Origin: a virus | Virus record (IMG/VR): IMGVR_UViG_3300025769_000006 | Direction: 5' to 3' (one strand) | Length of the DNA stretch: 64,000 nt | In this document: positions 1 to 62,236 of the stretch, piece by piece | Position numbering within the stretch: position 1 is the stretch's first letter | Layout of the letters: every line of letters begins with the position of its first letter | Translations under genes and position numbers: made by a program | Notes under the pieces: generated by a model | Database searches by the model: none | Told to the model about the DNA's origin: nothing | What the model saw: the letters and a program-made list of their open reading frames with translations, nothing else

Positions 1-15
1 TAGATATTGTAATTA

Positions 16-738: not shown

Positions 739-742
739 ATTT

Positions 743-2269: not shown

Positions 2270-2397
2270 CTAGACAAAAATATGCTGAGCGTCAAATTGA
2301 GAAATGGTGTAATTGGAGTTGGGAGATGCGAGGTAAAATAAAATACAAAGAACTAGTAGAATTACAAAAAGAATATAAAATTAAAGTATATGGATAA
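2224..2397 (+). CDS. Small hypothetical protein (57 aa; below the ORF-track cutoff)
   Basis: Hand translation gives MRRNNKHNPFEAKRIARQKYAERQIEKWCNWSWEMRGKIKYKELVELQKEYKIKVYG. It fills an otherwise non-coding gap on the coding strand. Confidence 0.3.
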   Translation: MRRNNKHNPFEAKRIARQKYAERQIEKWCNWSWEMRGKIKYKELVELQKEYKIKVYG

Positions 2398-2539
2398 TAA
2401 TAATAATATTTCTTGGTCTTTAGAAGTTGGCTTTTACCCAGGCATTCTATTTGGATTAAGAACTTATGATGAAGAAGAAAGAGTTTCATGGGTTTTATAT
2501 ATACCTTTTATTGATTTATGTTTAACAATTTATAAGTAA
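2390..2539 (+). CDS. Small hypothetical protein (49 aa)
   Basis: Hand translation gives MDNNNNISWSLEVGFYPGILFGLRTYDEEERVSWVLYIPFIDLCLTIYK. Its stop overlaps the nrdB start as TAATG. Confidence 0.3.
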   Translation: MDNNNNISWSLEVGFYPGILFGLRTYDEEERVSWVLYIPFIDLCLTIYK

Positions 2540-3507: not shown

Positions 3508-3542
3508 TATAGTAACTGAACAAGAAATATACGAAGAGCTTT

Positions 3543-3773
3543 ATGAAAGAAAGTAAGTTAATAGAAATGAAAAACAAAATAGATGCTCAAAGTAGAATAA
3601 TGCAGCATCTATTAAATGAATTAAGTAACATAAGGGATCTTGCTATAGGTACTTTAGAAACATTAAAATTAATACCTGGATATGATGATGCAATTGAAAA
3701 AATTAAAAAGGATATTACTGAGAAATCTAGTAAGACAAAAAAGACTGAGTCCTTGGAAAAGATTAGCAACTAG
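3543..3773 (+). CDS. Hypothetical coiled-coil protein
   Basis: 76-aa ORF between nrdB and nrdA on the coding strand, charged and helical. Confidence 0.45.
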   Translation: MKESKLIEMKNKIDAQSRIMQHLLNELSNIRDLAIGTLETLKLIPGYDDAIEKIKKDITEKSSKTKKTESLEKISN

Positions 3774-3783
3774 ATCTGGTTAT

Positions 3784-3951
3784 ATGGGCAGTGGTTTTTT
3801 AATAGCTGCTCAATGGACTATAGAGCCTAAACTTTATATAGTTGGCTTTATATTAGTAATGATACAAACAGCTTCAAGAAAACAATGGAATCTTGTAGCA
3901 TTAAACATGAATGGATTAATAGCATGGATAAAACACTTAACAATTATATAA
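3784..3951 (+). CDS. Small membrane protein (internal-Met version of the 3682..3951 ORF)
   Basis: MGSGFLIAAQWTIEPKLYIVGFILVMIQTASRKQWNLVALNMNGLIAWIKHL contains two hydrophobic segments. The start follows the stop of the previous ORF. Confidence 0.4.
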   Translation: MGSGFLIAAQWTIEPKLYIVGFILVMIQTASRKQWNLVALNMNGLIAWIKHLTII

Positions 3952-6217: not shown

Positions 6218-6574
6218 TTAATAATAAGTCCAAATTAAGTTTTGTGATTTGTTTTCGTCTATGTCTACGTGTATAAAACTACTACCTACACCTATTCTTT
6301 TAAATCCAACCTCAATAAAAGCATTTACCATGTCAAATCTATCTTTAGATGTTTTACAGCTTATGTCTGCAGCGATGCCTAGCATATGAGAAGAGTTTTT
6401 AACCCCACCAATCTTAACATTATGTTCTTTTGTTCTATAACCCGAATTCACGCGCATGGGTCTACCGTATATTTCTCTTGCTTTATCTAACATTTCTAAG
6501 AAACATTGATCCATTATCTTACCACTACCTGGCAAACCTGGACAATCAAATTCTTCTATTTTAAAGTGTTTCAT
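6218..6574 (-). CDS. Peptidase M15 family (zinc D-Ala-D-Ala carboxypeptidase-like) endolysin
   Basis: SGYRTKEHNVKIGGVKNSSHMLGIAADI ... FIHVD supplies the H-x6-D and distal His zinc ligands. Confidence 0.85.
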   Translation of the reverse strand: MKHFKIEEFDCPGLPGSGKIMDQCFLEMLDKAREIYGRPMRVNSGYRTKEHNVKIGGVKNSSHMLGIAADISCKTSKDRFDMVNAFIEVGFKRIGVGSSFIHVDIDENKSQNLIWTYY

Positions 6575-16780: not shown

Positions 16781-18052
16781 TTAATATGAAGACTCTTTAT
16801 AATTTGTTGATATAGCGAACAACTCACTTTTGTCTTGTGCATTACTGCATGTAAAAGTTACTTCTGCAGTATATCCTTTTATTCCTGAAATAGAATTACC
16901 AAAAACAATTTCGCCTTGTGAAAAAGCTGTTGAGTTTACTAAATTAGCAAAATACTTATCTTCTTTTCTTTTAAATTCATTTTTAAATAACTGATCGTCT
17001 AGTTCAGTGATTGTTGTAGGCATAACATACACGGCAACAGGTAAAGCTGAATCACCAGAATTTGTTGATATACTAGTCATAGCCCAATTATTGCCACCTT
17101 CGTAATTAATAGTTTGAAAGTTTTTAATTAATGAAGGTTGAGAATTAAATATAGTTTTAACGCTAGCGTCATATTGTGTTCCGTAAAAATTAGCTCTAGG
17201 TAGATTACTTCTATAGTGTTGATATATACCTCCTTCGCTTGTTGTGTAAAAATTATTTTGCACACTAACCACATTGTTAGGGCTATAGCTATATCTACTA
17301 GTCCAACCTTGAACTTGTTCATCAAAACTAAGTGTTTGAACTGGAGTTCCTGATGCTGCAGATTGCAGCGATAATGTATAGCACTTATTATGTATATCCC
17401 AACCTCCAATAGAAAGTCCACCGCTTAAAGTTGCGAAATTATCTCTAAAATAATCATACATACCATAAGCTGATATTTCTGTTATACCGTCTTGCGATAA
17501 TCTAAGTACAGCGCCTTGATTAGAGTCTGTAAAATATTTTCTATAACCATACACCGCAAAGCTTTCAGGGTTTTTTGATATACCAAATTCACCAGCATAT
17601 GGCGTTATAGCTCCAATAACAACATTTGAAGCTGTTTGTATAGGTTGACCTTCTTGCGTATATATAGCGTCTTTATCTATAAGAGCTCTGTTAACTTTAT
17701 TTTCTTGGAATATAATTAAATTAGTATCTTCAGCGTAAAGCTTTTGTACAGTACCTTTTTGGGGGTCAACAGTTCTAGTTATTTCTTCACCAGATGGAAA
17801 TTGATTGGTTTGATTCACACCTGTTCTAGAGTTTAATATACCTGAATATATTAAAGAATTACCAAGTTCTTCTTGTAAATTATCTTCAGCTCTTAAATAA
17901 GCTCTAGGTGATAAACCCGTTTGAACGTTATTATAACCACCTCTAATTCTAGCTTCTTCTATGTACCAGTTGTAAATAGGTGAAACATCTCCTTGTATTA
18001 TTTTTTTCAAAACAAAGGTATTGTAGTATTTTACTGGTGTTTTTACTGCCAT
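16781..18052 (-). CDS. Tail/structural protein (hypothetical)
   Basis: 423-aa ORF immediately downstream of the 1681-aa tail protein. Confidence 0.5.
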   Translation of the reverse strand: MAVKTPVKYYNTFVLKKIIQGDVSPIYNWYIEEARIRGGYNNVQTGLSPRAYLRAEDNLQEELGNSLIYSGILNSRTGVNQTNQFPSGEEITRTVDPQKGTVQKLYAEDTNLIIFQENKVNRALIDKDAIYTQEGQPIQTASNVVIGAITPYAGEFGISKNPESFAVYGYRKYFTDSNQGAVLRLSQDGITEISAYGMYDYFRDNFATLSGGLSIGGWDIHNKCYTLSLQSAASGTPVQTLSFDEQVQGWTSRYSYSPNNVVSVQNNFYTTSEGGIYQHYRSNLPRANFYGTQYDASVKTIFNSQPSLIKNFQTINYEGGNNWAMTSISTNSGDSALPVAVYVMPTTITELDDQLFKNEFKRKEDKYFANLVNSTAFSQGEIVFGNSISGIKGYTAEVTFTCSNAQDKSELFAISTNYKESSY

Positions 18053-31377: not shown

Positions 31378-33588
31378 TTATCTTATTATTTTTGAACTAA
31401 ATCCTTTATTATCGTATTTTTTAAAACCTAAATTTTTAACTTCTACTTTTCTTTTAAATACAGGTGTATATAGGTTTTTGTTGCAGGCCATTATAGCTAA
31501 ACCTGAACTTATGGAAGCATCATGCTTTGTTCTATTATTTATATCAAATCTCGACCAATCTTCTAATGTTTTTTGAAAATACATATCACCATATTTTTCC
31601 CCTAAATTACCAACATAAGTTTCTATATAAGATTCTATAGCTGCGGCGTGGGCTTGTTTTATGTCTTGGCTAGAATTAGGTATACCACCTATTTCTCTTT
31701 CTGTAACTGACAACTTCATATATACTTTATCCGGTCTATTCATAGAGTAACCTCTATAACCTCTTCTTTTGAAATGGTATAATAATCTTGGTTTATTATT
31801 TTCAGCTAATATTGGCATACCATAAAATATACAAGCCATAAGTACATCTTCAAAAAATATTTCAGCTGTTTGAGGTCTAGCTATATATTCTAAAAAAAAC
31901 ATACTATTTGGTGCATCTTCCATTGAAAATTTAGTTAAACCGTGTAGTGAACCGTTTGAACCTCTAGAATCTACCGTACCTGATATATCATATGGGTCAC
32001 AGCCAAAAGCACCAATATGCTCATTTCCTGGATATTTAATACCGTTTTTATTTATTACTACGTTTTGTAATCTTACAGGAGGTACCCAAGATATGTTAAA
32101 TCTTCCATTTTTATTAGGAACAAATAAAACTTTACTGTCTTTAATTCCATTTTGCCATTGAAAAGATCCTTTGGTAATAAGCAATTCGTTTTTAACGTCT
32201 TGATTAAAATCTATTTGCTCATATATTTTTGTTAAATTAAATAAAGACTGTTTTGCCTCATCTCTAAAGGCGTGTTGTTCAGTTCTTGGAAACTGTCTAT
32301 AAAATTCGTTTAAAGCATCTTGATCTTTTTTTAATCCATCAACTTCATTTTGCCAATACTCTAATACACCTATTTTTATTTTTTTTCCGTGCGGACCTTG
32401 CGTATCTTTATTTGGAGTTTCGAAGACAGGTAAGCCATAAGAATCAATGTAGCCTTCGTAGTTCCATTCCATAGGTATGAACAAAGAATATAATCCTGAG
32501 CGAGTCTCTCCATTGGCGTTTCTTTCTCTGACATCTGAATCATTATATAGTTTTTTAAAATTACTACCACCTTTATCTAAAGCATTAGATGTTGATCCCA
32601 TCATGCATTTACCTATAATTCTTCCACCTAATCTTAAACAAGTTTTTGTAACTCTCCAGTTATTTAATATGTTATTAGGTTTTTCCCACTTACCACTTTC
32701 ATCGTGGACAAGTAGTTTTAATTTTTCACCATCATAAGAGTTATCACCAGTATTTTTCCAATCTATTGTTGTGTCAAGCCCGTCAAGTTCTTGAACTTTT
32801 TGGTTTGTTTCAAGTTTTCTTCTTGTGTATTTTGTTGCTGGTACTCTATAGGCAAGCTCTGTTTTTGGCCTGTCCATACCGTCCTGGATGGGTTTGAAAA
32901 AGAACGGGTAGTTGACTGATATTGGTACGACTTTGTCTGTGAACATTTTCTTAGCATCGGGACCAGATTTGGACAAGATACCATACCGTGCATCTGACGT
33001 AATTGTTGCCATATTAACGGTTTCTGCTGAAGACATAAAAGAAAATCCGGAGCGTCTGTTTTTAAGATAACACATTCCATAACATCGTGAGTCTGCTTTA
33101 CAAGCTTCCCAGAAAATGTAGAATAATCTATTTGATTCCCTAAAGTCTGGCTGCCCAACGTCAATTTTGCTCCACTGCAAGTACATAAAGTGAGTACCAG
33201 TAATGTAAGTAGCCACGCTCTTATTATAGAACCAAAAGCCTTGTTCTCTTTTATTAAATTCATTATCAATGTAATCATACCATTTTTCTTTAAAATCTAA
33301 AGGATATTGCTCCCAATCAAAAACTGATTTTATTTTTTTTAATTCTTTTGGATATTCAGTATATTCCCACGTGTTAGAATCAAAAGAATAAACATTGTTT
33401 GATTTAGGTAAAGCAATTTTTAGATTTTGTATTTCATATATTTCTCCAACAGTACCGTCTTTACTTATAACTACGACATCGTGTTCATCATTATAACCAT
33501 ACTCCCATTTTTTATACCTATTCATTCTTTTGAGAACTTTAGGTTTAATATGGTCTTTTAAAACTTTATACAAACTTTGCTCGTGCAT
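31378..33588 (-). CDS. terL: Terminase large subunit
   Basis: CYLKNRRSGFSF (Walker A-like) and KLLVHDESGKW (Walker B/coupling). 736 aa, immediately upstream of the portal. Confidence 0.8.
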   Translation of the reverse strand: MHEQSLYKVLKDHIKPKVLKRMNRYKKWEYGYNDEHDVVVISKDGTVGEIYEIQNLKIALPKSNNVYSFDSNTWEYTEYPKELKKIKSVFDWEQYPLDFKEKWYDYIDNEFNKREQGFWFYNKSVATYITGTHFMYLQWSKIDVGQPDFRESNRLFYIFWEACKADSRCYGMCYLKNRRSGFSFMSSAETVNMATITSDARYGILSKSGPDAKKMFTDKVVPISVNYPFFFKPIQDGMDRPKTELAYRVPATKYTRRKLETNQKVQELDGLDTTIDWKNTGDNSYDGEKLKLLVHDESGKWEKPNNILNNWRVTKTCLRLGGRIIGKCMMGSTSNALDKGGSNFKKLYNDSDVRERNANGETRSGLYSLFIPMEWNYEGYIDSYGLPVFETPNKDTQGPHGKKIKIGVLEYWQNEVDGLKKDQDALNEFYRQFPRTEQHAFRDEAKQSLFNLTKIYEQIDFNQDVKNELLITKGSFQWQNGIKDSKVLFVPNKNGRFNISWVPPVRLQNVVINKNGIKYPGNEHIGAFGCDPYDISGTVDSRGSNGSLHGLTKFSMEDAPNSMFFLEYIARPQTAEIFFEDVLMACIFYGMPILAENNKPRLLYHFKRRGYRGYSMNRPDKVYMKLSVTEREIGGIPNSSQDIKQAHAAAIESYIETYVGNLGEKYGDMYFQKTLEDWSRFDINNRTKHDASISSGLAIMACNKNLYTPVFKRKVEVKNLGFKKYDNKGFSSKIIR

Positions 33589-35240: not shown

Positions 35241-35642
35241 TTAATCTTTTTTGTTTGTTATTTTTTTTGCTTTTTCCCAAGTTCTACCCACAAAGTAAGC
35301 TCCATAGACTGTAACAAGAAGAGTTTGAAATATTGGGATATACTCTTCTGCTATTTTAAATTCACCTATATTACCATGAAAAAAAGCACAAGCTGTAAAT
35401 ATTACTGTTAGGTATATTAAGACCATAGGGCGTATATTTTTAGATAGTTTACTATCTGACGCCATGTCTGCTTGCCACCTTGCTGTAACTTGCTCTTGTG
35501 CTTCTTTGTCGGCTTTTTCTAATATTTCTGTAATAAGGCGCTGAGCTTCAAGCTTTTCCTCTTTAGTTGTTGTAAGATTATCTAAAACCTCGCCAACTTC
35601 TTTTATGACGGAACCTGTAAGCCATTGCCAAATTTTTTTCAT
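35241..35642 (-). CDS. Holin-like protein (3TM holin / DUF3154-like)
   Basis: N-terminal amphipathic helix, then ARWQADMASDSKLSKNIRPMVLIYLTVIFTACAFF and a further hydrophobic segment. The W-x-x-D...S-x-L-x-x-x-RP motif is typical of that holin family. Confidence 0.55.
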   Translation of the reverse strand: MKKIWQWLTGSVIKEVGEVLDNLTTTKEEKLEAQRLITEILEKADKEAQEQVTARWQADMASDSKLSKNIRPMVLIYLTVIFTACAFFHGNIGEFKIAEEYIPIFQTLLVTVYGAYFVGRTWEKAKKITNKKD

Positions 35643-36087: not shown

Positions 36088-37614
36088 TTACGCAAAAGAA
36101 CCAAAATCATCAGATTCAAAAAGTTTATTCATTTTTAACTCATCAAATCTAGTTTTTCCAGGATTTTTTTTATTATTAGAGGCAACTGTGTTTAAAGCAT
36201 CTATTAAACTATCTTGATCAAACGTTCTATAAAACTCAGTTTGCTCTAAGTTATTTTCTTTTATTCTTTTTTCTAGCTTTTCTTTGTCAAACTGCTCTCC
36301 AGGTTCCATATTCAAAGCTCTTCTAAATTGATGAAAATTATTGTAAAGCTCTCCATATTGGGTAAAATAATCTTTTAGTTGTGTTGTTGGACCTGCTTTT
36401 AATCTTAGTTTAGATCTTAAATAAGGGTCCATAGCGTGATCTCTACCTGACTTATGTAATATTTCATGCTCACCAACATTAACACCACTTAGTAATGCTC
36501 TATTGTATTCATCTTCACCTCCGTAATTATCGTAAGAAAGATCTCTACCTACGCCTGGTATAAGCTGTTCATTTATTATAATATCACCAGTAGAAGAAAT
36601 TGAACCACCTCCACCAAATCCACTTCTAGGGTTTAAAAGGTTTCTTAAATCACTATTTAAAACATCAGATTTAGCTTGACCGTAGTTACCCGTAGACATT
36701 ACCTTTGGTTGTATTCCTAAATTGCTAACCATTCTATTTATAGATATATCCATGTCCATTTCACTAGCTAATTCACCTGCTTTTTCTACATTTTCGCCAA
36801 ACATTTGAGAGTTTAAATCGTCACCATATCTAACATTTTTTCTGTTAAAATCAACAGGTAATGAACCTAGTTTTTGAGCTTGCTGTGGATATCTTTCTCT
36901 AGTTACTGGGTGATTAGCCCAATCTAAAGCTTGTTGCGCAGATTGTATTAAATATTGATTAGCAGGATCTTCCATGTCTAAACCACTATTTTCTAATTTA
37001 TTTTGAAAATATTTTTCTTTTTCCTCTTGGCTCATTCCGTATAAAGATAATTCAATGTTTGGATCTTCGACATTAAATCTTTGATCCGTATAACCAATAG
37101 CGTATTCCATATCTGGAGACCAACTTTGATCTTGTAAATTAGAAAGTTCATAACCAGTACTTACATATGGATTTCTTGGTTTACTTCTGTCAGAAACATA
37201 ATCTTTATCTTTAGTTTCATCTTTTTTAAGACCATAGTAAGCTTGGGTAGGTGTTAAACCAAATTGACCACTAAACGCATAAGATTCTAATTCTTCATTA
37301 CTAGCATTTGGGTTTTTCTTTTTTAACTCATCTAGTATGTAGTTTCTATAATCTTCAGTCATTCTCTGCCTTTCGCTGTATCTTTTTTTTGCTTCTTCAG
37401 CTTCTGGCTTTAAACTTAATTTTTTACCTTCAACATCCCTTAAATCTTCTTTTAGAATAAACTTAGGCTTATTAACTCTAGTATTATCTACTTGAACGTT
37501 TGGTCTTCTTTTGTCTGTTGGATTGATTGGGTGTTGAGTACCATCATGAAACTTTATAGGGCTGTTGTTTACACCACCTTTTAAATTCTTAAAATAACCT
37601 TTTTTTAATCCCAT
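36088..37614 (-). CDS. HExxH (zincin-like) protein with an N-terminal SPIK motif
   Basis: VNVGEHEILHKSGRDH motif near residue 395. N-terminus GGVNNSPIKFHDG. 508 aa. Confidence 0.5.
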   Translation of the reverse strand: MGLKKGYFKNLKGGVNNSPIKFHDGTQHPINPTDKRRPNVQVDNTRVNKPKFILKEDLRDVEGKKLSLKPEAEEAKKRYSERQRMTEDYRNYILDELKKKNPNASNEELESYAFSGQFGLTPTQAYYGLKKDETKDKDYVSDRSKPRNPYVSTGYELSNLQDQSWSPDMEYAIGYTDQRFNVEDPNIELSLYGMSQEEKEKYFQNKLENSGLDMEDPANQYLIQSAQQALDWANHPVTRERYPQQAQKLGSLPVDFNRKNVRYGDDLNSQMFGENVEKAGELASEMDMDISINRMVSNLGIQPKVMSTGNYGQAKSDVLNSDLRNLLNPRSGFGGGGSISSTGDIIINEQLIPGVGRDLSYDNYGGEDEYNRALLSGVNVGEHEILHKSGRDHAMDPYLRSKLRLKAGPTTQLKDYFTQYGELYNNFHQFRRALNMEPGEQFDKEKLEKRIKENNLEQTEFYRTFDQDSLIDALNTVASNNKKNPGKTRFDELKMNKLFESDDFGSFA

Positions 37615-37616
37615 AA

Positions 37617-38084
37617 CTAAGCATTTTTAGTTTTATCGTAAGCTTCTTTTTCCCAAGGTAAATTTTTAGCTCCTTCGTTCATTTGAGATCTAGGATATTT
37701 TTTACCTTCCCAATAAACATTATCATCATCATAAGCAAGTCGACGATCTTTTATTTGCTTAATATGAATCATTTCATGATCTATAACGTCTTGTTTTTGC
37801 TTTAGGTCTGTTATGTCTTTGTTTATAAGTATAGTACCATTATTAGTAGCCATACCTAAAGTATCATCACCCATATCGACATGCATTATAGGTGTATTGT
37901 ATTCTTCTTTAATATATGGAGACCCTTTCATTTTAAAACCCATTTTTAAAGGAGAAGTTCTTTTCTTTTTAGCTGCTTTTAATGAAGCGTCATTTCCAGT
38001 TCCAGAGCCAGATCTTTTTCTTGCTTTATTCCAGTTTTCGCTGTGCATTAAAGAACTCCAACAGTGTTTTATAGGTGAACCCAT
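37617..38084 (-). CDS. Small DUF4157-like zincin protein with SP[IL]K motifs
   Basis: GMATNNGTILINKD...VIDHEMIHIKQ fits the DUF4157 pattern (short beta region followed by HExxHxxQ). N-terminus MGSPIKHCWSS, plus TSPLKMGFKMKGSPYIK. Confidence 0.55.
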   Translation of the reverse strand: MGSPIKHCWSSLMHSENWNKARKRSGSGTGNDASLKAAKKKRTSPLKMGFKMKGSPYIKEEYNTPIMHVDMGDDTLGMATNNGTILINKDITDLKQKQDVIDHEMIHIKQIKDRRLAYDDDNVYWEGKKYPRSQMNEGAKNLPWEKEAYDKTKNA

Positions 38085-38106
38085 ATATTGTTTTTTTATA
38101 AATAAA

Positions 38107-38130
38107 CCCCGCGACTATTAAGCCGCGAGG
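38107..38130 (-). terminator. Intrinsic terminator after the 137-aa Ala-rich protein gene
   Basis: On the transcribed strand: CCUCGCGGC-UUAAUA-GUCGCGGGG (9 pairs including 2 G:U), followed by UUUAUUUAU. Confidence 0.6.
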
Positions 38131-38154
38131 ATATATTTAATTGTTGATTAATTT

Positions 38155-38568
38155 TTATACGTCGTCAACAGTTCCAACGGACCAAGTTGACCAGTACATT
38201 TGCTTTGGTGTAGCAGCTTGATCTTTTCCTAATTGAGCTGTAGATACAACTCCACCTGGATTAGCAGTCATAGCTGAAAAGATAGCTTTGTCTGGAGCGT
38301 AAGCACCGTCTGTAATAGTTGGTACTCCAGCACTTCCATCTTTTGTTGTTGTAACTGTAGCTGTTAAAACTCTTGCAGAGATACCTGCAGAAGCGGCATC
38401 TACTCCAAAACCACCAGCAGCAGCAGTTAAAACTGCAGTTACAACACCTGTTGAAGCATTGTAAGATACATCTCCAATGTGGTCAACATTGATTAATTTT
38501 GTACCTTGAGTTAGTAAAGCAGCTGCATCAGCAGTGTTTACCACGTTAAATTTAATGAATTTTGCCAT
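38155..38568 (-). CDS. Ala/Thr/Gly-rich small protein, probably abundant (structural or decoration candidate)
   Basis: 137 aa, with its own (CAAAA)n leader upstream and a GC-rich terminator downstream. Confidence 0.5.
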   Translation of the reverse strand: MAKFIKFNVVNTADAAALLTQGTKLINVDHIGDVSYNASTGVVTAVLTAAAGGFGVDAASAGISARVLTATVTTTKDGSAGVPTITDGAYAPDKAIFSAMTANPGGVVSTAQLGKDQAATPKQMYWSTWSVGTVDDV

Positions 38569-38628
38569 TTTGTTTTGTTTTGTTTTTGTTAATGATTTGT
38601 TTGACTTGGGTTTTACAGTTCCCTACTG

Positions 38629-39087
38629 TTATCCTTTTAATCCAAATTCAAGTCCTTTGTCAACTTTCATTTTTAAAGCGTGAATCTTTTTAAGCATGAT
38701 AGGATCTCCTTTCATCATAGCTGGATCATTAGCATCACCCATTGCGTTATAAGCTCCAGACATGTCTTTAATGTCGTCTGAATCAGCTAAGTTTTTTATA
38801 GGCATTGTTTTGCCGTCTACTTCCATTGTTGTTGCATCTGGATTTTTCTTTAATGTTTCAGCTTTTATAAAGCCTAAGTTTTTAGGAGCGTGATCCATTT
38901 TGGCAGCTGGTTCTCCGTACATTTTAGCGACGCAATGTTTTTTAGCCGGATGACTATGCTTGTCATGCTCACTGTTTTCTAAATAATGTAGTCTAGCGTT
39001 TGCAGTAAGATCTTTGTTATAAGCTTCTCTAGCATCATATTTTTGCCCCGAAGAATATCTCGGGTGATTTCCTGAATAATTTCCCAT
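38629..39087 (-). CDS. Hypothetical His/Lys/Met-rich protein
   Basis: 152-aa ORF with a (CAAAA)-type leader. Confidence 0.5.
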   Translation of the reverse strand: MGNYSGNHPRYSSGQKYDAREAYNKDLTANARLHYLENSEHDKHSHPAKKHCVAKMYGEPAAKMDHAPKNLGFIKAETLKKNPDATTMEVDGKTMPIKNLADSDDIKDMSGAYNAMGDANDPAMMKGDPIMLKKIHALKMKVDKGLEFGLKG

Positions 39088-39112
39088 TTTGTTTATGTTT
39101 TGTTTTGTATTG

Positions 39113-39457
39113 TTATTGTTTGAGTTTTTCTACTGCGTTTTTTGCAATACCAAATAACCCACCAGTTGCAGCGTCTGCAAGTTTAAATTTATTTTTATTT
39201 ACAAATTTTTTAGCAGTGCTAGCAAAATCGCTTACTTTTTCTCCAAAAGTTTTTGGTATTGTATTATCATATTTCCAGTCTAATTTGTCGTAAACATCTC
39301 TTCTACCTTTACTTCCTGGAGGATTGTTTGTTAACATTTGACTTTTAATAGCGTCTACACCTCTTTTTTGTAGATCGCTTGATGATACTTGTATTGAAGA
39401 CCCATCGTCTTGCAATATATTTTTTTTGTCGTGATTATTTTTAATTGGTGATGGCAT
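39113..39457 (-). CDS. Small basic protein starting MPSPIK (internal-Met version of 39113..39556)
   Basis: Starting at MPSPIKNNHDKK removes the overlap with the upstream gene and matches the N-termini of its neighbours. Confidence 0.5.
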   Translation of the reverse strand: MPSPIKNNHDKKNILQDDGSSIQVSSSDLQKRGVDAIKSQMLTNNPPGSKGRRDVYDKLDWKYDNTIPKTFGEKVSDFASTAKKFVNKNKFKLADAATGGLFGIAKNAVEKLKQ

Positions 39458-39467
39458 AATTTTTATT

Positions 39468-39773
39468 TTAACATTTCCAGCGTCTACGCGCTGCTTTACC
39501 TCTTTCGCCCGTCCAACCTTTGGATCTAGCGCAGAATGATTTTCTTCTTTTAGCATCTTTGCTGCCAGGTTTTACTTTACCTGTCACAGCTGTTTTAAGT
39601 TTACTACCAGGGTTTTTCTTTCTATATTCTTTAACGCCTTTTTCTGTCATACCAGCGCCTTCTTTAGTAGTTCTAAAATTTCTACCTTTACCCTTAGTAG
39701 TTTTTCTTGGCTCGTTTTTATGTAACGGTGATTCTATTGATGATGATTCTTTTATTCTTTTTAACCAAGTCAT
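39468..39773 (-). CDS. Small very basic protein with SPLHK and KRRKSFCAR motifs (internal-Met version of 39468..39839)
   Basis: Starting at MTWLKR places the ATG 1 nt after the upstream stop. The C-terminus is DAKRRKSFCARSKGW...RRRWKC. Confidence 0.5.
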   Translation of the reverse strand: MTWLKRIKESSSIESPLHKNEPRKTTKGKGRNFRTTKEGAGMTEKGVKEYRKKNPGSKLKTAVTGKVKPGSKDAKRRKSFCARSKGWTGERGKAARRRWKC

Positions 39774-39774
39774 A

Positions 39775-40146
39775 TTATTCTCCGCATTTTTTTGATGGAT
39801 CATCAACTCTTCTCCAGTCTTCTTTTTCAAACCAGTCACGTAATGTAGCTCCTTTTTTACGAGCGCCTTTTACATTAGTCTTTGATGATCTTTTATATTT
39901 ACCTTTAGCACCAGCGGCTTTTTTAGAGTTAACTAGCTTTTGTCTTTGCTCTTTACTCATGCTTCTTATTTTAGAAGCTGGTAAACAAGTTTTAGTTGTA
40001 CCGCCACCTTTTTGTTTTTTCTTTTTAACTGGCGAGTTTTTTTTACAACTGCCTTTACTATACGGATCTTTACCTTCTACTGCAGAATAACCAGACCAAC
40101 ATCTTTTTAAGACAGGTGAATTAAAAGGTTGCTTATATCCTTGCAT
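39775..40146 (-). CDS. Small very basic protein with SPVLKRCWSGY and SPVKKKK motifs
   Basis: 123 aa, Lys-rich. Its start overlaps the upstream stop as TAATG. Confidence 0.55.
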   Translation of the reverse strand: MQGYKQPFNSPVLKRCWSGYSAVEGKDPYSKGSCKKNSPVKKKKQKGGGTTKTCLPASKIRSMSKEQRQKLVNSKKAAGAKGKYKRSSKTNVKGARKKGATLRDWFEKEDWRRVDDPSKKCGE

Positions 40147-40301
40147 TATTTTTTCTTTTTACCACCAAATTTACTAGGACCTCCAGCTTTTGTGCAACGC
40201 ACTCCCCAGCCAGAAGCATAAGCGCTTGGCCATACTTTAAATTTTCTTTTAGCAGCAGATTTACAAGCTGAACTTATTTTCTTTATTGGTGAAATTGGCA
40301 T
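40146..40301 (-). CDS. Small basic protein (51 aa) starting MPISPIKK
   Basis: Hand translation gives MPISPIKKISSACKSAAKRKFKVWPSAYASGWGVRCTKAGGPSKFGGKKKK. TAATG overlaps at both ends. Below the ORF-track cutoff. Confidence 0.5.
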   Translation of the reverse strand: MPISPIKKISSACKSAAKRKFKVWPSAYASGWGVRCTKAGGPSKFGGKKKK

Positions 40302-40507
40302 TATCCTAGTTTTGCTCTTTTAGTAATTGGCATACCAGCTCCACACTCACATGGTGCTTTTGAAACTTCAAGTCCATATATACCACTGCTTGATCCTTTA
40401 CCCATTGGGAAACCTGTTTTGTCTAGAGGTCCGTCCCATATAGCGTTTTCACCAATTTGGCCGTCTAATTTTGGGTTACTTTTTATTTTTTCAATATCGT
40501 GATTCAT
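40301..40507 (-). CDS. Hypothetical small protein
   Basis: 68-aa ORF, Gly-rich. Confidence 0.45.
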   Translation of the reverse strand: MNHDIEKIKSNPKLDGQIGENAIWDGPLDKTGFPMGKGSSSGIYGLEVSKAPCECGAGMPITKRAKLG

Positions 40508-40512
40508 AATTT

Positions 40513-41613
40513 TTAGTTTTTACCTTTAAATATATTAATAGATCTTAAGAAATTACCAACACCAGTACCTTGACCTGTTTGTCTGTCTTGCCAGTTATCT
40601 CTTCTTCTTGTTATTCTAGCTGCCTTGTTTAGTTGCCCTTTGTCTTTAGCATCTTTAATTCTACTTTCGAAAGTTTGTTTATCTCTTTTAAAAGTTCCCC
40701 AAAAAGGGTCTTTGTATGGGTTTGTTACTTTAATATCTAAATTTTTATCTAAAAAAGAATAACCGCTATTATTATTGTCATTTCCACCTGTGTTTATATT
40801 TACATTTGTTCCAGGAGATGTTGATGAAGTTCCTTTAGGGTTAGAATAACTACCACTAGTATTGCCACCAGTGTTTCTTGTTGGTAAACCCGGTAAAGAT
40901 AAACTTGATCCAGTCTTACCAGTATCTCTCATATAATTAGTTTTACCACTCATATCTGATTCACCAAGAGACATAGTGTTTTTTAATTGATCAACTGCAC
41001 TATAAACTTTAGATGGATCAATATTAGTTTTTAGAGCTACTGGGCTAGGTCTATTCACAGATGCCGTTCGCTCTGCTAGATCACCATAAATATTACTAGC
41101 AGCATTTATAGCTCCCATTGAAAAAGTATTACCTTGAGGTTGTTGTGCCATAGCATTATTAGCCATTCCAAATTGGGGATTGTTGTTTGTGTTATTTGTA
41201 TTCATAGTTTCATTTGAAATTACTGGTTGACCTGCTGTTCCGTATGTTTGTAATTGTTGTTGTTGGTCTTGATATCTTTTTTTATTTTGAAATTTTAAAT
41301 AATCCATACCTTGTTTGTCTCTGTCAGAAACATATCTATCATCATATCTTAAATTATCAGGCAATTGCCAACTTTCATAAGCACCAACAATATTATCACC
41401 CATGCCATTAGCCCAAACTTGTTTTTCAACAGGTTTTTCCATATCGCCAGTTCCTTTACCTATGGCTTTTAAATAAGATTCTTTTTGCCACCATGGAGTA
41501 CCATCATTGAAACCACCTGGCTCAAAAGAAGCTTTTGTTCTAGCCTCGTTTGTGTCAACGTAGTTTTGTAGGTTCTCATTTCTGGAGTAAAGTCTGTTAG
41601 ATTTAAAACTCAT
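40513..41613 (-). CDS. N/Q/G/S/T-rich low-complexity protein (internal-Met version of 40513..41640)
   Basis: Starting at MSFKSNRLY lies 1 nt after the upstream stop. It has long polar low-complexity tracts. Confidence 0.5.
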   Translation of the reverse strand: MSFKSNRLYSRNENLQNYVDTNEARTKASFEPGGFNDGTPWWQKESYLKAIGKGTGDMEKPVEKQVWANGMGDNIVGAYESWQLPDNLRYDDRYVSDRDKQGMDYLKFQNKKRYQDQQQQLQTYGTAGQPVISNETMNTNNTNNNPQFGMANNAMAQQPQGNTFSMGAINAASNIYGDLAERTASVNRPSPVALKTNIDPSKVYSAVDQLKNTMSLGESDMSGKTNYMRDTGKTGSSLSLPGLPTRNTGGNTSGSYSNPKGTSSTSPGTNVNINTGGNDNNNSGYSFLDKNLDIKVTNPYKDPFWGTFKRDKQTFESRIKDAKDKGQLNKAARITRRRDNWQDRQTGQGTGVGNFLRSINIFKGKN

Positions 41614-41614
41614 T

Positions 41615-42061
41615 TTATCTATTTTTATCTTTATTAACATCGTATATAGACCTTGTTAAAACTTTATCTATATAACTGTTACCTTTTATGATGTTGTTTC
41701 TTCTTTTGCTAGTAGGTATATCTTCTTCCCCTAACATTATTTTATATATCCTAATTATAAGTTGTTTAAATTTAAAAGAAACTTTATATATATTATATTT
41801 TTGTGTTGTTCTGTTTCTATGCCTCCAAACAACTATCCAGTTTTCTTTTATTAATTTATTCCACCTTCTGTTGTTCCAACTGTAAGAATATGTACCTTTT
41901 ATAAAATCTTTTTTTGTAAAATAATTTACGGCGTCTAGATATATTAAAAGTTCTAATTCAGCGTCAGTTAAGCCGTTGTTTTTGCAAGCCCATTTGCGTA
42001 TTATACGGTAATGTTTTAACAGATTCAATTCTTTAATATCTTCTGCGTCTAGCTTTCTCAT
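41615..42061 (-). CDS. Hypothetical basic protein (possible DNA-binding)
   Basis: 148-aa ORF, W/R/K-rich, directly downstream of groES. Confidence 0.45.
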   Translation of the reverse strand: MRKLDAEDIKELNLLKHYRIIRKWACKNNGLTDAELELLIYLDAVNYFTKKDFIKGTYSYSWNNRRWNKLIKENWIVVWRHRNRTTQKYNIYKVSFKFKQLIIRIYKIMLGEEDIPTSKRRNNIIKGNSYIDKVLTRSIYDVNKDKNR

Positions 42062-42318
42062 ACAACAACGACCACGTCTTGTGACTTTATAACGTGATAT
42101 ATATTTTTTTCAAACTCTATTTTATGACCAGCGTGTCTATCAAAAAATATTTCATCATTTTCTTTAACACCATCAACTTCATTTCCAACTGATATTACTA
42201 GTGCTCTTCTGTATCTTAAATCATTTTTTTGATTTTCAGAAAGAAGTAAACCACCTTTTGTTTCTGTAGTTCCTTCTTTTTTGACTAATATTATTAAGTT
42301 TCTACCTATTGCTTTCAT
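42058..42318 (-). CDS. groES: Co-chaperonin GroES/Hsp10 homologue
   Basis: RNLIILVKKEGTTETKGGLLL (mobile-loop region), RRALVISVGNEV and VKENDEIFFDRHAGHKI align with the GroES pattern. 86 aa. Confidence 0.8.
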   Translation of the reverse strand: MKAIGRNLIILVKKEGTTETKGGLLLSENQKNDLRYRRALVISVGNEVDGVKENDEIFFDRHAGHKIEFEKNIYHVIKSQDVVVVV

Positions 42319-57531: not shown

Positions 57532-58083
57532 ATGGTCAATGGGTTTATTATGACAGACAATAGCACACTAAACAAATTGTTTAAAGAACATATAGAAGAT
57601 ATAAACAAGTTTATATATTCTAAAGTAAAAGATATACATTTAACTAAAGATCTATCTCAAGAAACTTTAATAAAACTTACAAAAGCTTTACGTAAAAAAA
57701 ACTATGAAGATCAGGGTAAATTTAAATCTTTTGCATTATGTGTGGCTAATAATATTATAGTAGATTATTATAGAAAAAAGAAACGTAGACCTAAAATGAA
57801 AAGATCTGAAACTTATGATATATTTTCTAAAATAAAATATGAAGAATTAAATAAAGAAGAATATATTATAAAAGAACAGATGTTAAAAGAAGTTAAACAA
57901 CTGCTTAATAAAATACCTAAAAAACTTAGACAAGTATTAATATTAAGGTTTTATAGTAAAATGACTTTTAGGCAAATAGCTAAAGAAACAAACACAAAAA
58001 TTAATACTGTTCAAGGTAGATTTAGATACGGAATGGATAGACTAAAACAATTACACGGACTTAACGAGTTATTAAATAGATAA
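57532..58083 (+). CDS. RNA polymerase sigma factor, ECF-like (sigma-70 regions 2 and 4)
   Basis: Region 2-like LSQETLIKLTKAL...FKSFALCVANNIIVDYYRKKKRR. Region 4 HTH LPKKLRQVLILRFYSKMTFRQIAKETNTKINTVQGRFRYGMDRLK. Confidence 0.8.
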   Translation: MVNGFIMTDNSTLNKLFKEHIEDINKFIYSKVKDIHLTKDLSQETLIKLTKALRKKNYEDQGKFKSFALCVANNIIVDYYRKKKRRPKMKRSETYDIFSKIKYEELNKEEYIIKEQMLKEVKQLLNKIPKKLRQVLILRFYSKMTFRQIAKETNTKINTVQGRFRYGMDRLKQLHGLNELLNR

Positions 58084-59512: not shown

Positions 59513-60156
59513 TGTCACGTGAAAGAAATATAAAATGGTTAAATGATAGGCATGTTATATACAGGAAAGATCCTGTTAACGATGCGCCAACTATAGAAAC
59601 CAAGCATTATAAATACTATGAAGATGGTACGCACGAGTGTTATCACTTGTTTAATAGCAAGGCTAAGATTACTACGTACAAATCTTTAAAGTGGCATTTT
59701 TATGTTTTGTATTTTCTTAACCAAGACAGACCTGAAGGTTTGCTGCCAACTAGTATTTACGAGTTTATAGCAGATAAAGAAAATGGCTTTGTAACATTTT
59801 TTATTAGTGATAAAAAGCTAAACGAAATGATTGAAGACGTGTTCAATGATGGCGGTGAACCACCTTTAAATAAGAAACGTAAGATAATATTTAAAGACTA
59901 TAGCGGTTTATCTTTTGATCAAAAAATGAGTATTGTAGGTAAATTAATTGGAAGATCAAAACGTGTAAATGAAGAAGCTATATATGAATGTATGCTAGAT
60001 TTAATTTATTATGGTAAAAAAATAACTTGGAGTAAAGTTGCAGTTTTGTTAAACTGTTCAGAAAGAACTGTAATAAGAAATATTAATAACGAATTAAAAA
60101 AAGAAAAAGAAATATTAAATGAAGAAATACAACATACAGAATTATATAAGATATAA
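59512..60156 (+). CDS. Hypothetical protein with a C-terminal HTH
   Basis: KITWSKVAVLLNCSERTVIRNINNELKKE resembles a resolvase or sigma region-4-type HTH. Confidence 0.5.
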   Translation: MSRERNIKWLNDRHVIYRKDPVNDAPTIETKHYKYYEDGTHECYHLFNSKAKITTYKSLKWHFYVLYFLNQDRPEGLLPTSIYEFIADKENGFVTFFISDKKLNEMIEDVFNDGGEPPLNKKRKIIFKDYSGLSFDQKMSIVGKLIGRSKRVNEEAIYECMLDLIYYGKKITWSKVAVLLNCSERTVIRNINNELKKEKEILNEEIQHTELYKI

Positions 60157-60871
60157 GGAAGATATTAAATCTTCAATGCCACCTCAAAAATTTTACGATT
60201 ACTACACGAGAGATGAATTAGTTGTTAAATTTATACCTCTTGTTGAAGCCATGGCTAGAAAACAATCAACATCACAACAAGCTGTTGGTGTTTTAACAAT
60301 AATGGATCTATTTCAAATTGGCAGTTTAGCTTTAGTAAAGGCAGTTGATAAATTAGACTGGGAAAGATTAATTGATTCAGAAGATATTGAAAAAACATTA
60401 AAAAGCTTTTTTAGTAAAAGAATAAAAGGTGCTATTAGAAGAAAAATAGATTCATTAAGAGGTAATATAAGAATACCAGAACATAAAATTAATGAAATAC
60501 GTAAAAACCCTAAAGACAAAAAAATGGTTGCTATGTTTTTTAATTCTATGTTTTTAAGTATAGACGCACAGCCTGTTAACGACGAAGAAAATATGATAAA
60601 TCAAATAGCAGACAAGTCAGAACCATATAACATACAAATACTTAACATGTATTTAAAGAGTTTAATGAAAAAACATTTAACAGGCATTGAGTATGAGGTT
60701 TTAAGATTGTCTTATGGACTAGATTGTGAAAAACATTCTGCTAACTATATAGCAGGTAAATTAGGCATAAGAGGTGTTAGCGCATATGTGCGTGTTTCAG
60801 AATTAAAAAAACAAGCTGTACAAAAATTAATAGACAGCGTTGATCACTCGCAAGTGCTTGACTTTCTGTAA
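60119..60871 (+). CDS. Sigma-70 family sigma factor (regions 2-4 recognisable)
   Basis: RIKGAIRRKIDSLRGNIRIPEHKINEIRK parallels the sigma-70 WIRQAI...IRIPVH segment. C-terminus LTGIEYEVLRLSYGLDCEKHSANYIAGKLGIRGVSAYVRVSELKKQAVQKL is a region 4.2 HTH. The start may be the Met at 60176. Confidence 0.75.
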   Translation: MKKYNIQNYIRYKEDIKSSMPPQKFYDYYTRDELVVKFIPLVEAMARKQSTSQQAVGVLTIMDLFQIGSLALVKAVDKLDWERLIDSEDIEKTLKSFFSKRIKGAIRRKIDSLRGNIRIPEHKINEIRKNPKDKKMVAMFFNSMFLSIDAQPVNDEENMINQIADKSEPYNIQILNMYLKSLMKKHLTGIEYEVLRLSYGLDCEKHSANYIAGKLGIRGVSAYVRVSELKKQAVQKLIDSVDHSQVLDFL

Positions 60872-60956: not shown

Positions 60957-61505
60957 ATGAACATAAACGAAAAATTAGCTACAATCCAAACAAAGTTTAA
61001 ATCAAAGAAAAGTAGATTTAACTCCTTCGGCAAATATTACTTCAGATCAGCCGAAGATATTCTCGAAGCAACAAAACCCTTTTTATTAGAATTAGGAGTA
61101 TCAGTAACAATTGATGAACAATTGATAGATGTAAGTAATATACCTATAATTTGCTCAACAGCTACAATAAGTGACGGTAAAGAATCAATACACGCGTCAG
61201 CTTTAGTTGGAGTTGATTTAAACCAAAAAGGTATGCAAACACCTCAACAGTTTGGCTCTGCTTCTAGCTACGGTAAAAAATACGCATTGGGTAATTTATT
61301 TTTAATAGATGACACACAGGATTCAGACGCATCAAATACCCACGGTAAAACACAAAAAGCTAAAACTAAAAACACTATAACCTCTAAAAAAGATCCAGCA
61401 TACGAAAAAGCGGTTCAATACCTAGCATCAGGTGGTAAATTAGAAGCTATTAAGTCAAAATATAATCTTTCTAAAGAAATAGAAGGAGCGTTAAATACTT
61501 TATAA
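60957..61505 (+). CDS. erf: ERF-family single-strand annealing protein
   Basis: FNSFGKYYFRSAEDILEATKPFLLELGV ... QQFGSASSYGKKYALGNLFLIDDTQDSD matches the ERF core pattern. Confidence 0.75.
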   Translation: MNINEKLATIQTKFKSKKSRFNSFGKYYFRSAEDILEATKPFLLELGVSVTIDEQLIDVSNIPIICSTATISDGKESIHASALVGVDLNQKGMQTPQQFGSASSYGKKYALGNLFLIDDTQDSDASNTHGKTQKAKTKNTITSKKDPAYEKAVQYLASGGKLEAIKSKYNLSKEIEGALNTL

Positions 61506-62236
61506 TGACAGAAAAACAAGTTATAAAAAAACTAAAAGATGATAAACATTATTACGGGGATTTTGGTAAAAAATATCTCAGTAATTCTGATATAAGCAAG
61601 CTTTTAACAAACCCACTTAGTCTTAGAGAAGAACAAAAACAAATACCAGCTTTTTTAATAGGTGGTTATTTTCATACTGCTATATTAGAACCAGATAAAC
61701 TTAAAAAGTTTAAAATAATAGATGCTACAACAAGAAACACTAAGTTGTATAAAGAAATATCTGGTGGCGAAATGTGTTTGTTAAAAAGCGAAGTTGACAA
61801 ACTAGAACTAATGATAGATAAAATGCTAAGCAACAAAGCTTGCGTTGATCTTATAAGAGGTATAAATATTGAATATGAAAAACCTGGCATAACAGAGTTA
61901 GAAGGTTTAAAATGGAAAGGCAAAGCTGATATTGTTAATCACGATGAAAGATTAATAGTAGATTTAAAAACAACAGCTGATCTTCACAAATTTAGATATT
62001 CAGCTTCTAAATATAATTACGACAGTCAAGCTTATATTTATCAACATCTATTTGGATATGAATTAATATTTATAGCAATAGATAAAACCACGCATCAAAT
62101 AGGTATTTTTGATTGCTCACCTGATTTTTTATTGCGTGGTAGAGACAAAGTACAAAGAGCAGTTGAACAATATAAATTATTTTATGAATCAGAGGATTTT
62201 GATCCTCAACAATATTTTATTAATCAAACTTTATAA
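61505..62236 (+). CDS. PD-(D/E)XK exonuclease, RecE C-terminal/DUF3799-like
   Basis: GGYFHTAILEPDKLKKF and GKADIVNHDERLIVDLKTT (the D...D-x-K core). Confidence 0.7.
   Translation: MTEKQVIKKLKDDKHYYGDFGKKYLSNSDISKLLTNPLSLREEQKQIPAFLIGGYFHTAILEPDKLKKFKIIDATTRNTKLYKEISGGEMCLLKSEVDKLELMIDKMLSNKACVDLIRGINIEYEKPGITELEGLKWKGKADIVNHDERLIVDLKTTADLHKFRYSASKYNYDSQAYIYQHLFGYELIFIAIDKTTHQIGIFDCSPDFLLRGRDKVQRAVEQYKLFYESEDFDPQQYFINQTL

Follow-up and report, generated by a model that had tools for sequence, protein, structure and literature searches.

The 64,000-nucleotide (nt) stretch analysed here as a whole (the window; IMG/VR virus record IMGVR_UViG_3300025769_000006) is a phage genome segment of low GC content (~32%), and its minus strand carries, from position 36,088 to position 40,507, a cluster of mostly small genes in which the short peptide motif SP[ILV]K recurs. 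An original prediction had described these genes as a translationally coupled set encoding lysine-rich proteins with a common N-terminal tag, and all nine peptides that it quoted were found on the minus strand in the genes to which it had assigned them. In the direction of transcription, and together with the gene immediately upstream, the locus comprises the following features (aa, amino acids).

40513..41613, minus strand: W375, which shares the start M-[AGS]-F-K and has no N-terminal SP motif
40301..40507, minus strand: W68, 68 aa, part of the coupled chain, without SP motif; its stop overlaps the W51 start (TAATG)
40146..40301, minus strand: W51, 51 aa, with 14 Lys/Arg and no acidic residues; SPIK, then K-I-S-x-x-C-K...KFKVWPSAYASGW
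39775..40146, minus strand: W123, 123 aa; SPVLK heads a CWSGY...KGSC hairpin and SPVK heads KQKGGGTTKTCLP...ATLRDWFEKEDWRRVDDPSKKCGE
39468..39773, minus strand: W102, 101 aa, a DUF6321 protein starting with MTWL 1 nt past the W123 stop; SPLHK precedes NEPRKTTKGKGRNF
39113..39457, minus strand: W115, 114 aa, starting with MPSPIKNN 10 nt past the W102 stop
38629..39087, minus strand: W152, 152 aa, without SP-hydrophobic-K and with the xP-hydrophobic-K pieces TMPIKN and GDPIMLKK; leader rich in A and C, without G
38155..38568, minus strand: W137, 137 aa, Ala/Thr-rich and non-basic, outside the motif set; leader rich in A and C, without G
38107..38130, minus strand: intrinsic terminator-like hairpin of 10 pairs (7 G-C) followed by a T-run, between W137 and W155
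37617..38084, minus strand: W155, a fusion of a disordered basic CW unit (residues 1-47, SPIKHCW...KKRTSPLK) with an HExxH mini-zincin (residues 48-155)
36088..37614, minus strand: W508, 508 aa, slightly acidic, with the N-terminal peptide MGLKKGYFKNLKGGVNNSPIKFHDGT and a C-terminal HEILH region

The chaining proposed for these genes is present in the sequence: stop and start overlap as TAATG at 40301 and again at 40146, and gaps of 1 nt (39774) and 10 nt (39458-39467) follow. The raw open reading frames (ORFs) overlap by 65-89 nt, and choosing internal Met starts removes these overlaps, a choice supported by orthologues: MTWL directly follows the upstream stop in the related locus L005, and the W115 orthologues (86-89% identity) begin with MPSPI[KR]. 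The real start of W375 is likely MSFKSNRLY at 41613, 1 nt past the upstream stop. The terminator splits the cluster into two transcription units, and W137, immediately ahead of it, is probably very highly expressed and possibly a structural protein.

Motif copies are located at residues 4-7 of W51 (SPIK, nt 40281-40292), residues 10 and 38 of W123 (SPVLK, nt 40105-40119; SPVK, nt 40024-40035), residue 15 of W102 (SPLHK, nt 39717-39731), residue 3 of W115 counted from the internal Met (SPIK, nt 39440-39451), residues 3, 44 and 55 of W155 (SPIK, nt 38067-38078; SPLK, nt 37944-37955; SPYIK, nt 37908-37922) and residue 18 of W508 (SPIK, nt 37552-37563). In nine cluster proteins (1,409 aa), SP[ILV]K occurs six times against 0.09 expected, a count reached by none of 2000 composition-preserving shuffles, and the looser pattern SP[ILVFMAY]x0-2[KR] occurs nine times against 0.65 expected. 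The other 50 window ORFs taken as genes (16,974 aa) are at background, with one occurrence of the strict pattern against 0.49 expected and six of the looser one against 3.7. The motif is thus non-random, and the concern raised with the original prediction, that it might merely reflect the background frequency for this composition, is answered by an enrichment that is both strong and confined to the cluster. The Ser codons differ among the copies (TCA, TCT, TCG and AGC); the constraint therefore acts on the peptide, and a DNA- or RNA-level signal is excluded. An artefact, whether by chance or composition, through a nucleotide-level signal, or from one long gene broken by frameshift errors in A-runs, is hardly credible. 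The region is lysine-rich and A-rich and its raw ORFs overlap, but the shuffles fail to match the observed count, the codons differ, the overlaps vanish with internal Met starts, and identical gene boundaries recur in independent JGI, TARA and ENA assemblies, which rules out a frameshift or assembly artefact. Two details of the earlier description hold in part. The statement that most of the proteins are very basic applies to W102, W123 and W51 (27-33% K+R) and not to W155, W115 (18%) or W508, in which 14% K+R stand against 16% D+E. Similarly, the third copy in W155, quoted as GSPYIK, is present, but its Ser is not kept, the orthologues reading G-[A/S/P]-P-Y.

The suggested search in related phages covered 80 IMG/VR loci, four metagenome-assembly loci and, out of a library of 1.84 billion proteins, 150 representatives carrying the WPSAYASG module. 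The motif proved to be conserved in orthologues of every carrying family, including those from independent marine metagenomes, and is kept in hundreds of uncultured relatives of the phage. SP[ILV]K is the core of a longer peptide, (M-A/G-F/Y-K-x-K ...)-[S/T/N]-P-hydrophobic-x-K/R. In its general form, [S/T/N]-P-hydrophobic-x-K/R, often after M-A-F-K-x-K, it stands just upstream of ~20 unrelated mini-modules, among them the WPSAYASGW module (DUF5872-like), the CWxGY hairpin, DUF6321 and an HExxH mini-zincin of ~100 residues. A strictly N-terminal tag, as originally envisaged, is not what these proteins carry, as the motif also occurs internally, at fixed spacing upstream of modules inside fusion proteins; it appears N-terminal in the window because most modules are separate, translationally coupled genes there. 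Between the window and its diverged relatives L013 and L014, identity reaches 98% for W123, 92-94% for W51, 87% for W155 and 86-88% for W115, compared with 64% for W68, 53% for W137 and 40% for W375, none of which has the motif. This comparison shows the motif-bearing proteins to be under unusually strong purifying selection.

The position of the motif at module boundaries is seen in the WPSAYASG family, whose 128 diverse representatives include 52 with SP-hydrophobic and nine with T/NP-hydrophobic. The string S-P-hydrophobic-x-(x)-K-I-S-x-x-C-K is fixed before WPSAYASGW, both at gene starts and buried in proteins of 100-350 aa, and the flanking linker residues vary freely where the motif survives. 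The second W123 site likewise has a median position of 38 across 62 loci. Junctions of fusion proteins that carry the motif include HIKPS-SPL-KCWKGY, where a PAP2 phosphatase is fused to a CWxGY unit, QN-SPL-KKISGPCK, KKD-SPL-KRKDPLVG and HGK-SPL-TKEYRGVL. The motif was found at 105 of 225 inferred internal boundaries versus ~40 at random positions, a rough comparison inflated by homology and by some truncated gene calls. In orthologues the Ser is exchanged for Asn or Thr and the Pro occasionally for Ala, and such swaps of turn formers are illustrated by NNPLSCWKGY and by KNPINITEKAYEK versus KSPVNIKEKAYEK. The longer start M-[AGS]-[FYL]-K opens 54 of 906 proteins in the related loci, ~18 times the tripeptide background; apart from three isolated single matches, the proteins concerned belong nearly all to a small-basic supercluster or to the W508 and W375 families. 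Heads of this kind typically read MAFKMKGSPYKK, MAYKLKHSPIKK or MGLKKGYFKNLKGGVNNSPIKF, and MAFKMKGSPLKK is a candidate portable head beside the 26-residue head of W508.

The motif is therefore real and conserved and marks the boundaries of modules, and the modules themselves are mosaic. A single BLAST supercluster of 318 proteins, which W152 also joins, is connected through fusion proteins. P0369 unites a WPSAYASG unit with a CWxGY unit, both modules appear in PHROGs 727 and 3477 in the same gene order as in the window, and P0021 and P0038 carry CW units in tandem, with the W155-type unit fused before a W123-type protein. In L048 (290 aa, start 5470), L021 (4173), L024 (5449) and L026 (20), a PAP2-superfamily domain is joined through an SPL linker to a CWxGY/KQKGGG protein, and 19 related loci encode a stand-alone PAP2-like protein of ~180 aa. 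The prefix is missing from distant DUF6321 and WPSAYASG proteins of pelagiphages, cyanophages and others, the WPSAYASG ones being of the KDACYHKVK type, and it accordingly belongs to this gene pool and not to the domains. P0347 and P0371, returned by the representative search, were set aside as repeat proteins unrelated to the family. Some relatives also encode extremely low-complexity K/M/P proteins, in L032 (142 aa, start 2880), L034 (280 aa, 7547) and L084 (97 aa, 5678); these include tandem KDPMKMK repeats and K/A/M-rich examples that resemble histone H1.

Searches of Pfam, PHROGs and NCBIfam left every cluster protein without a functional name, and what can be said of them comes from domain families, conserved residues and models. 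W51, with a net charge of +14, matches the N-terminal third of DUF5872 (PF19197; profile positions 6-41 of 116) at 17.7 bits, below the 27.5-bit cutoff; the K-V-W-P-S-A-Y-A-S-G signature of that family, present in W51 as KFKVWPSAYASGW, is common to 193 representative clusters. W123 has 1636 homologue clusters in marine metagenomes, with the consensus SPL-x-CWxGYERVPGT..SKGSC.K.SSPx..KQKGGGTTKTCLP...ATLRDWFEKEDWRRVDDPSKKCGE, and its P11, S38 and P39 are nearly invariant (alignments A1 and A3; 22 and 47 sequences). In its AlphaFold2 (AF2) model, both motifs lie in low-confidence linkers before or after small structured elements, with predicted local distance difference test (pLDDT) values below 50 at residues 1-13 and 40-51. 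Foldseek found no PDB fold matching this model, and W123 gave no match to the DUF5872 profile; its C-terminal L-R-D-W-F...C-G piece is one that occurs in the rest of DUF5872. In W123, TCLP..SMSKEQRQ precedes LRDWF..W..V....CG, and in phage C75C1 (L009 3111-3347) the order is reversed (WRDQNWVRIG..GPCG..RCLP..SLSQSQR), an arrangement suggestive either of a circular permutation or of what is left of a tandem duplication.

W102 is the member with the clearest family assignment, as the 123-aa ORF that contains it (39468-39839) reaches 44.7 bits against the 28.5-bit cutoff of DUF6321 (PF19846; E 2.2e-11). Its DUF6321 module is 76% identical over 79 residues to gp22 of Pelagibacter phage HTVC028P, and identity to proteins of T7-like and T4-like cyanophages is 54-73%; this cross-phage identity is far above that of any other gene here. 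Such values imply that the module has been exchanged recently between phages of different host phyla.

Two proteins of the cluster carry an HExxH motif. In W155, the zincin part retains its own start, MGFKMKGSPY, as an internal Met, and its homologues are mostly stand-alone proteins of 101-105 aa; H103, E104, H107, Q110, E137, E145 and E147 are invariant in 31 sequences (alignment A2). The AF2 model has pLDDT values of 70-81 at residues ~62-130, and values below 50 across residues 1-61 except for residues 32-33 and 43-45; it places strands at residues 66-88 and then a helix at 94-112 that bears HExxH. Foldseek matches of this model in the PDB are weak (the minigluzincins jannalysin and selecase, and IrrE, at E 0.3-1.3), those in BFVD are phage proteins labelled SprT-like (E 1.5e-3 to 4e-2), and no Pfam or NCBIfam family was matched at E <= 0.1, the SprT-like family PF10263 included. 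Residues 48-155 are thus a predicted mini-zincin, with a weak likeness of the model to minigluzincins and IrrE. The K-(H/R)-CWS extension, which had been noticed as identical in two of the proteins, is explained by related CW units in W155 (residues 1-47) and W123 (residues 10-36). W508, for which no Pfam, PHROG or NCBIfam match was obtained, has an N-terminal segment of 26 residues (MGLKKGYFKNLKGGVNNSPIKFHDGT) that is near-invariant in homologues of 31-40% overall identity, and G381, H383, E384 and H387 are invariant in the same alignment (A4). The N-terminal peptide is kept on entirely different protein bodies in L010, L013, L014 and L049; in L013 and L014, only the 28-residue head of W508 is retained and the body is replaced.

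Beyond the cluster, the window contains one long minus-strand block in which GroEL, GroES, the cluster, a holin, the large terminase (TerL), the portal, virion structural proteins, a muzzle-domain protein, giant proteins and an endolysin-like ORF are encoded. The principal features outside the cluster are listed below (TM, transmembrane).

1-5673, plus strand: nucleotide-metabolism block with thymidylate synthase, MazG-like pyrophosphohydrolase, DUF1064, and ribonucleotide reductase small and large subunits
6218-6574, minus strand: M15-type endolysin-like ORF, 118 aa, 51% identical to the endolysin of relatives, directly after the 2453-aa protein
16781-18052, minus strand: protein with the Crassvirus muzzle protein C-terminal domain (PF25729), 36.4 bits
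within the minus-strand block: giant proteins of 1681 aa and 2453 aa
28963-31377, minus strand: portal
31378-33588, minus strand: TerL
35241-35642, minus strand: three-TM holin (Pfam GTA_holin_3TM, 28.6 bits, cutoff 24.8 bits), the second gene downstream of W508
42058-42318, minus strand: GroES, 86 aa
42302-43858, minus strand: GroEL, 518 aa
44287-44832, minus strand: protein of 181 aa with collagen triple-helix repeats
57532-58083, plus strand: sigma-70/ECF-like factor
60119-60871, plus strand: second sigma-70/ECF-like factor, a weak region-2 match at 17.7 bits, under the cutoff
60957-61505: ERF recombinase, near the sigma-like factors
61505-62236: PDDEXK-like nuclease, near the sigma-like factors

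The oppositely oriented block with the two sigma-like factors may hold early genes, and the muzzle-domain protein and the two giant proteins are together suggestive of a tail and cargo architecture of crAss-like type in a marine relative of flavobacterial phages. The GroEL/GroES pair lies on the upstream side of the cluster, separated from it by one gene (41615-42061), and the same pair is annotated in the closest TerL relative, MW202828; a link between the pair and the small proteins was considered, and nothing supports it. TerL shares 63% identity with its counterpart in an uncultured spring-water podophage and ~45% with those of the Flavobacterium 'elemo' phages; Cellulophaga, Tenacibaculum and Maribacter phages are among the weaker matches. 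Since these TerL relatives are found among flavobacterial phages, the host is probably a member of Flavobacteriia. MW202828 lacks the cluster. Among 50,697 phage records, megablast found no match to the cluster region, so that no cultured phage in that set shares it at the DNA level, and tblastn with W155, W508, W123 and W51 gave nothing useful.

In most relatives, the small basic genes end a late operon, among a TM/holin-like gene, a Peptidase_M15 endolysin and genes for a secreted thioredoxin-like protein and a porin-like protein, and the order is TM/holin-like, DUF6321-like, WPSAYASG, CWxGY, Peptidase_M15 endolysin. The placement in a virion module that had been assumed is therefore not the usual one, the neighbours being lysis genes instead of head and tail genes. 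In the window, the cluster is upstream of TerL and near the holin, and the M15 endolysin-like gene is ~30 kb off; the cassette has evidently moved in this phage, because its relatives carry the small basic genes beside the M15 endolysin gene. DUF6321 shows a comparable range of positions. It lies among endolysin and TM lysis genes in the pelagiphages HTVC010P and HTVC028P and similarly in phage C75C1, just before TerL in the T7-like cyanophage S-TIP28, a position that spanin genes occupy in T7, and after the capsid gene in HTVC023P. Because it is 76% identical to the protein of a SAR11 phage, while TerL matches only phages of Flavobacteriia, the module moves between phages of different phyla, and its target is inferred to be one that very different hosts share.

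Taken together, these observations make it possible, and this is put forward only tentatively, that the motif is a selected turn or linker element heading mini-proteins that bind a polyanion, probably DNA. An uncultured marine phage lineage, probably infecting Flavobacteriia, shuffles motif-headed modules among its small, presumably late accessory proteins, and the six proteins of the window are assembled from the WPSAYASGW helix module, the CWxGY hairpin, DUF6321, the mini-zincin and the larger HExxH protein. The motif itself may form a Ser/Asn-Pro turn of the SPXX/SPKK type that opens a flexible basic arm; by analogy with histone tails, the arm would help the module to dock on a polyanion, most probably DNA, and the predicted zincin domains might act on proteins bound there. 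In the AF2 models of W155 and W123, the motif segments are of low confidence and probably constitute disordered linkers beside small structured elements, and a helix N-cap as the general explanation finds no support in these two proteins. Four points favour DNA as the polyanion: W51, W123 and W102 have a strongly basic composition, DUF6321 is conserved across phyla, histone tails set a precedent for S/T-P-x-K, and the zincin has a SprT-like flavour. Proteases of the Spartan/Wss1 family are DNA-dependent and cut DNA-bound proteins. In histone H1 and sperm H2B, the S/T-P-x-K motifs of the basic tails serve as units of DNA contact (PMC9903204, PMC6615755).

Several results weigh against this interpretation. 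No experiment and no annotated homologue was found that assigns nucleic-acid binding to DUF6321, DUF5872 or the CWxGY unit, and sequence searches of the PDB returned only compositional matches to ribosomal proteins (E >0.07). The third residue of the motif is hydrophobic in every copy, whereas it is basic in canonical SPKK; each of the nine copies has a Lys at +3 to +5, and SPVKKKK of W123 comes closest to SPKK through its Lys run. W508 and W115 are not basic, the neighbourhood in several phage lineages consists of lysis genes and not of replication or packaging genes, the AF2 models are of low to moderate confidence, and the counts over loci are inflated by shared ancestry. Moreover, the N-terminal peptide of W508 is conserved very strongly over its whole length, and this fits a recognition tag better than a simple turn.

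Such a tag was the idea of the original prediction. Worked out further, M-A-F-K...S-P-hydrophobic-K would be read by one partner shared by these proteins, be it the procapsid interior, the portal or a phage HExxH protein, and would serve to load or mature a variable set of small proteins, as in the capsid targeting of T4 internal proteins or in the processed basic core proteins of adenovirus. The start shared by 54 of the 906 proteins, the invariance of the W508 head and its retention on swapped bodies, the two HExxH proteins of the cluster, the location of the motif at fusion junctions, where a cleavage site would be expected, and the muzzle domain and giant proteins, which suggest that the phage ejects cargo proteins, are all consistent with it. 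The fixed spacing is, however, also kept in stand-alone genes, where cleavage would remove merely 2-10 residues; the mini-zincin lies within 6 kb in only ~13 of the 80 related loci, the genes are outside the head and tail block in most relatives, and virion proteomics was found for no homologue. A processing signal finds no counterpart in a prohead protease, as no known family of these enzymes was detected among the head-gene products of the portal-capsid interval or the other ORFs scanned. A portable N-terminal peptide survives in part, since the W508 head is kept on different bodies and the motif is shared by otherwise unrelated proteins, but the motif is not confined to N-termini. As to Ser-Pro as a modification site, orthologues have Asn or Thr in place of the Ser and Ala in place of the Pro, which disfavours an obligatory phospho-site, and proline-directed phosphorylation was rejected given the exchange of Ser for Asn and the lack of a protein kinase among the ORFs scanned. 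The motif also does not match the Bacteroidetes O-glycosylation sequon D-[ST]-[AILVMT]. An addressing or processing tag of this general kind is accordingly rated as unlikely, and the narrower version, a portable addressing or maturation peptide (M-A-F-K-x-K...S-P-hydrophobic-K) read by a phage-encoded reader such as the SprT-like mini-zincin, a W508-type zincin or the procapsid, as improbable. If that version were true, the phages would have a set of tiny, exchangeable DNA-binding effector modules at their disposal, to be loaded, released or activated, following the logic of T4 capsid targeting or adenovirus core-protein processing with different parts and in a very abundant ocean phage group.

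The gene neighbourhood points in another direction, namely to lysis-associated cationic proteins whose target would be the envelope (outer membrane, lipid or peptidoglycan) once the holin has fired, with the motif as a linker. The proximity of a TM/holin-like gene and the M15 endolysin is conserved across lineages, DUF6321 occupies lysis-type positions in HTVC010P, HTVC028P, C75C1 and S-TIP28, only one gene separates W508 from the three-TM holin of the window, the CWxGY unit occurs in fusion with a PAP2 lipid-phosphatase-like domain, and W51 combines 51 aa with a net charge of +14. A precedent is offered by the disruptin gp28 of phage phiKT, a cationic protein that replaces spanins (bioRxiv 10.1101/515445). 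Nevertheless, five or more such genes are present in the window where one would suffice, and the very high conservation (70-98% within the lineage; DUF6321 76% to the SAR11 phage) and the presence of conserved Cys and Trp set these proteins apart from antimicrobial-type peptides, which evolve fast. In addition, the M15 endolysin-like gene of the window (6218-6574) is ~30 kb away, the Pfam family DUF5872 also occurs in viruses of eukaryotic algae, hosts that have no outer membrane, and none of the small basic cluster proteins has a signal peptide or TM segment. A lysis role is thus considered unlikely. It is also unlikely that the prefix has no function of its own and is simply an inherited ancestral N-terminal piece, repeatedly recombined onto new C-terminal parts as a harmless cap. 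Extensive mosaicism, the tandem prefix-bearing CW units and the distant DUF6321 and WPSAYASG proteins that work without a prefix would agree with this explanation, yet the motif persists amid freely varying linker residues and in ~20 unrelated contexts, its codons differ between copies, and its carriers are the most conserved proteins of the cluster.

The turn-element proposal and its alternatives concern proteins that are very common in ocean viromes, with >1600 homologue clusters for one member, that rank among the most conserved genes of their phages, and whose modules move between phages of Flavobacteriia, SAR11 and cyanobacteria. The shared, selected head peptide provides a concrete experimental handle and could reveal whether the mini-modules share a mode of delivery, processing or docking; even if the motif is only a structural turn, it marks module boundaries and is useful in annotating viral dark matter. 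The domains are already catalogued as DUFs and S/T-P-x-K turns are a known kind of motif, whereas the literature found holds no description of a mosaic mini-module pool that shares one head peptide across an abundant lineage of ocean phages; the literature on DUF5872 and DUF6321 yielded one genome paper, which merely lists the name.

Among known systems, the SPKK/SPXX units of histone H1 and sperm H2B share with the present motif a Ser-Pro turn followed by Lys, repeated in disordered lysine-rich segments that flank small folded units of basic proteins, as well as the Ser/Thr swap, and disordered basic tails flanking folded units are what the AF2 models of W155 and W123 display. In contrast, the present motif has a hydrophobic third residue (I, L, V, F or M) in place of a basic one, the carriers are viral and bacterial-type proteins, and the motif stands at a fixed distance from specific modules instead of forming loose tandem arrays. 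The internal proteins of T4 (IPI-III and Alt) also carry a short N-terminal peptide, the capsid-targeting sequence, that is common to small, basic, co-located and unrelated proteins; here, however, the motif is internal as well, no prohead protease of a known family was detected, and the motif is not known to resemble the T4 capsid-targeting sequence or its cleavage consensus. W155 is similar to minigluzincins (selecase and jannalysin) and SprT-like phage proteins in its ~100 residues, an invariant HExxH on a long helix after a small sheet and conserved downstream Glu residues, and differs from these minimal zincins in lacking a Pfam match and in reaching PDB matches only at E 0.3-1.3. Like the disruptin gp28 of phiKT, which is very small, strongly cationic and encoded among the lysis genes of a podophage without a recognised spanin, W51 is tiny and highly charged and lies near the holin (35241-35642), with an endolysin as neighbour in relatives; the present phages differ in having many different conserved modules per genome, conserved Cys and Trp, and homologues in viruses of eukaryotes. 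Further counterparts are DUF6321 and DUF5872 themselves, small basic domains of aquatic phages and giant viruses, of which W102 is a clear DUF6321 member and W51 has the WPSAYASG of the first third of DUF5872, and here they are split over separate coupled genes, each with a lineage-specific SP-hydrophobic-K prefix.

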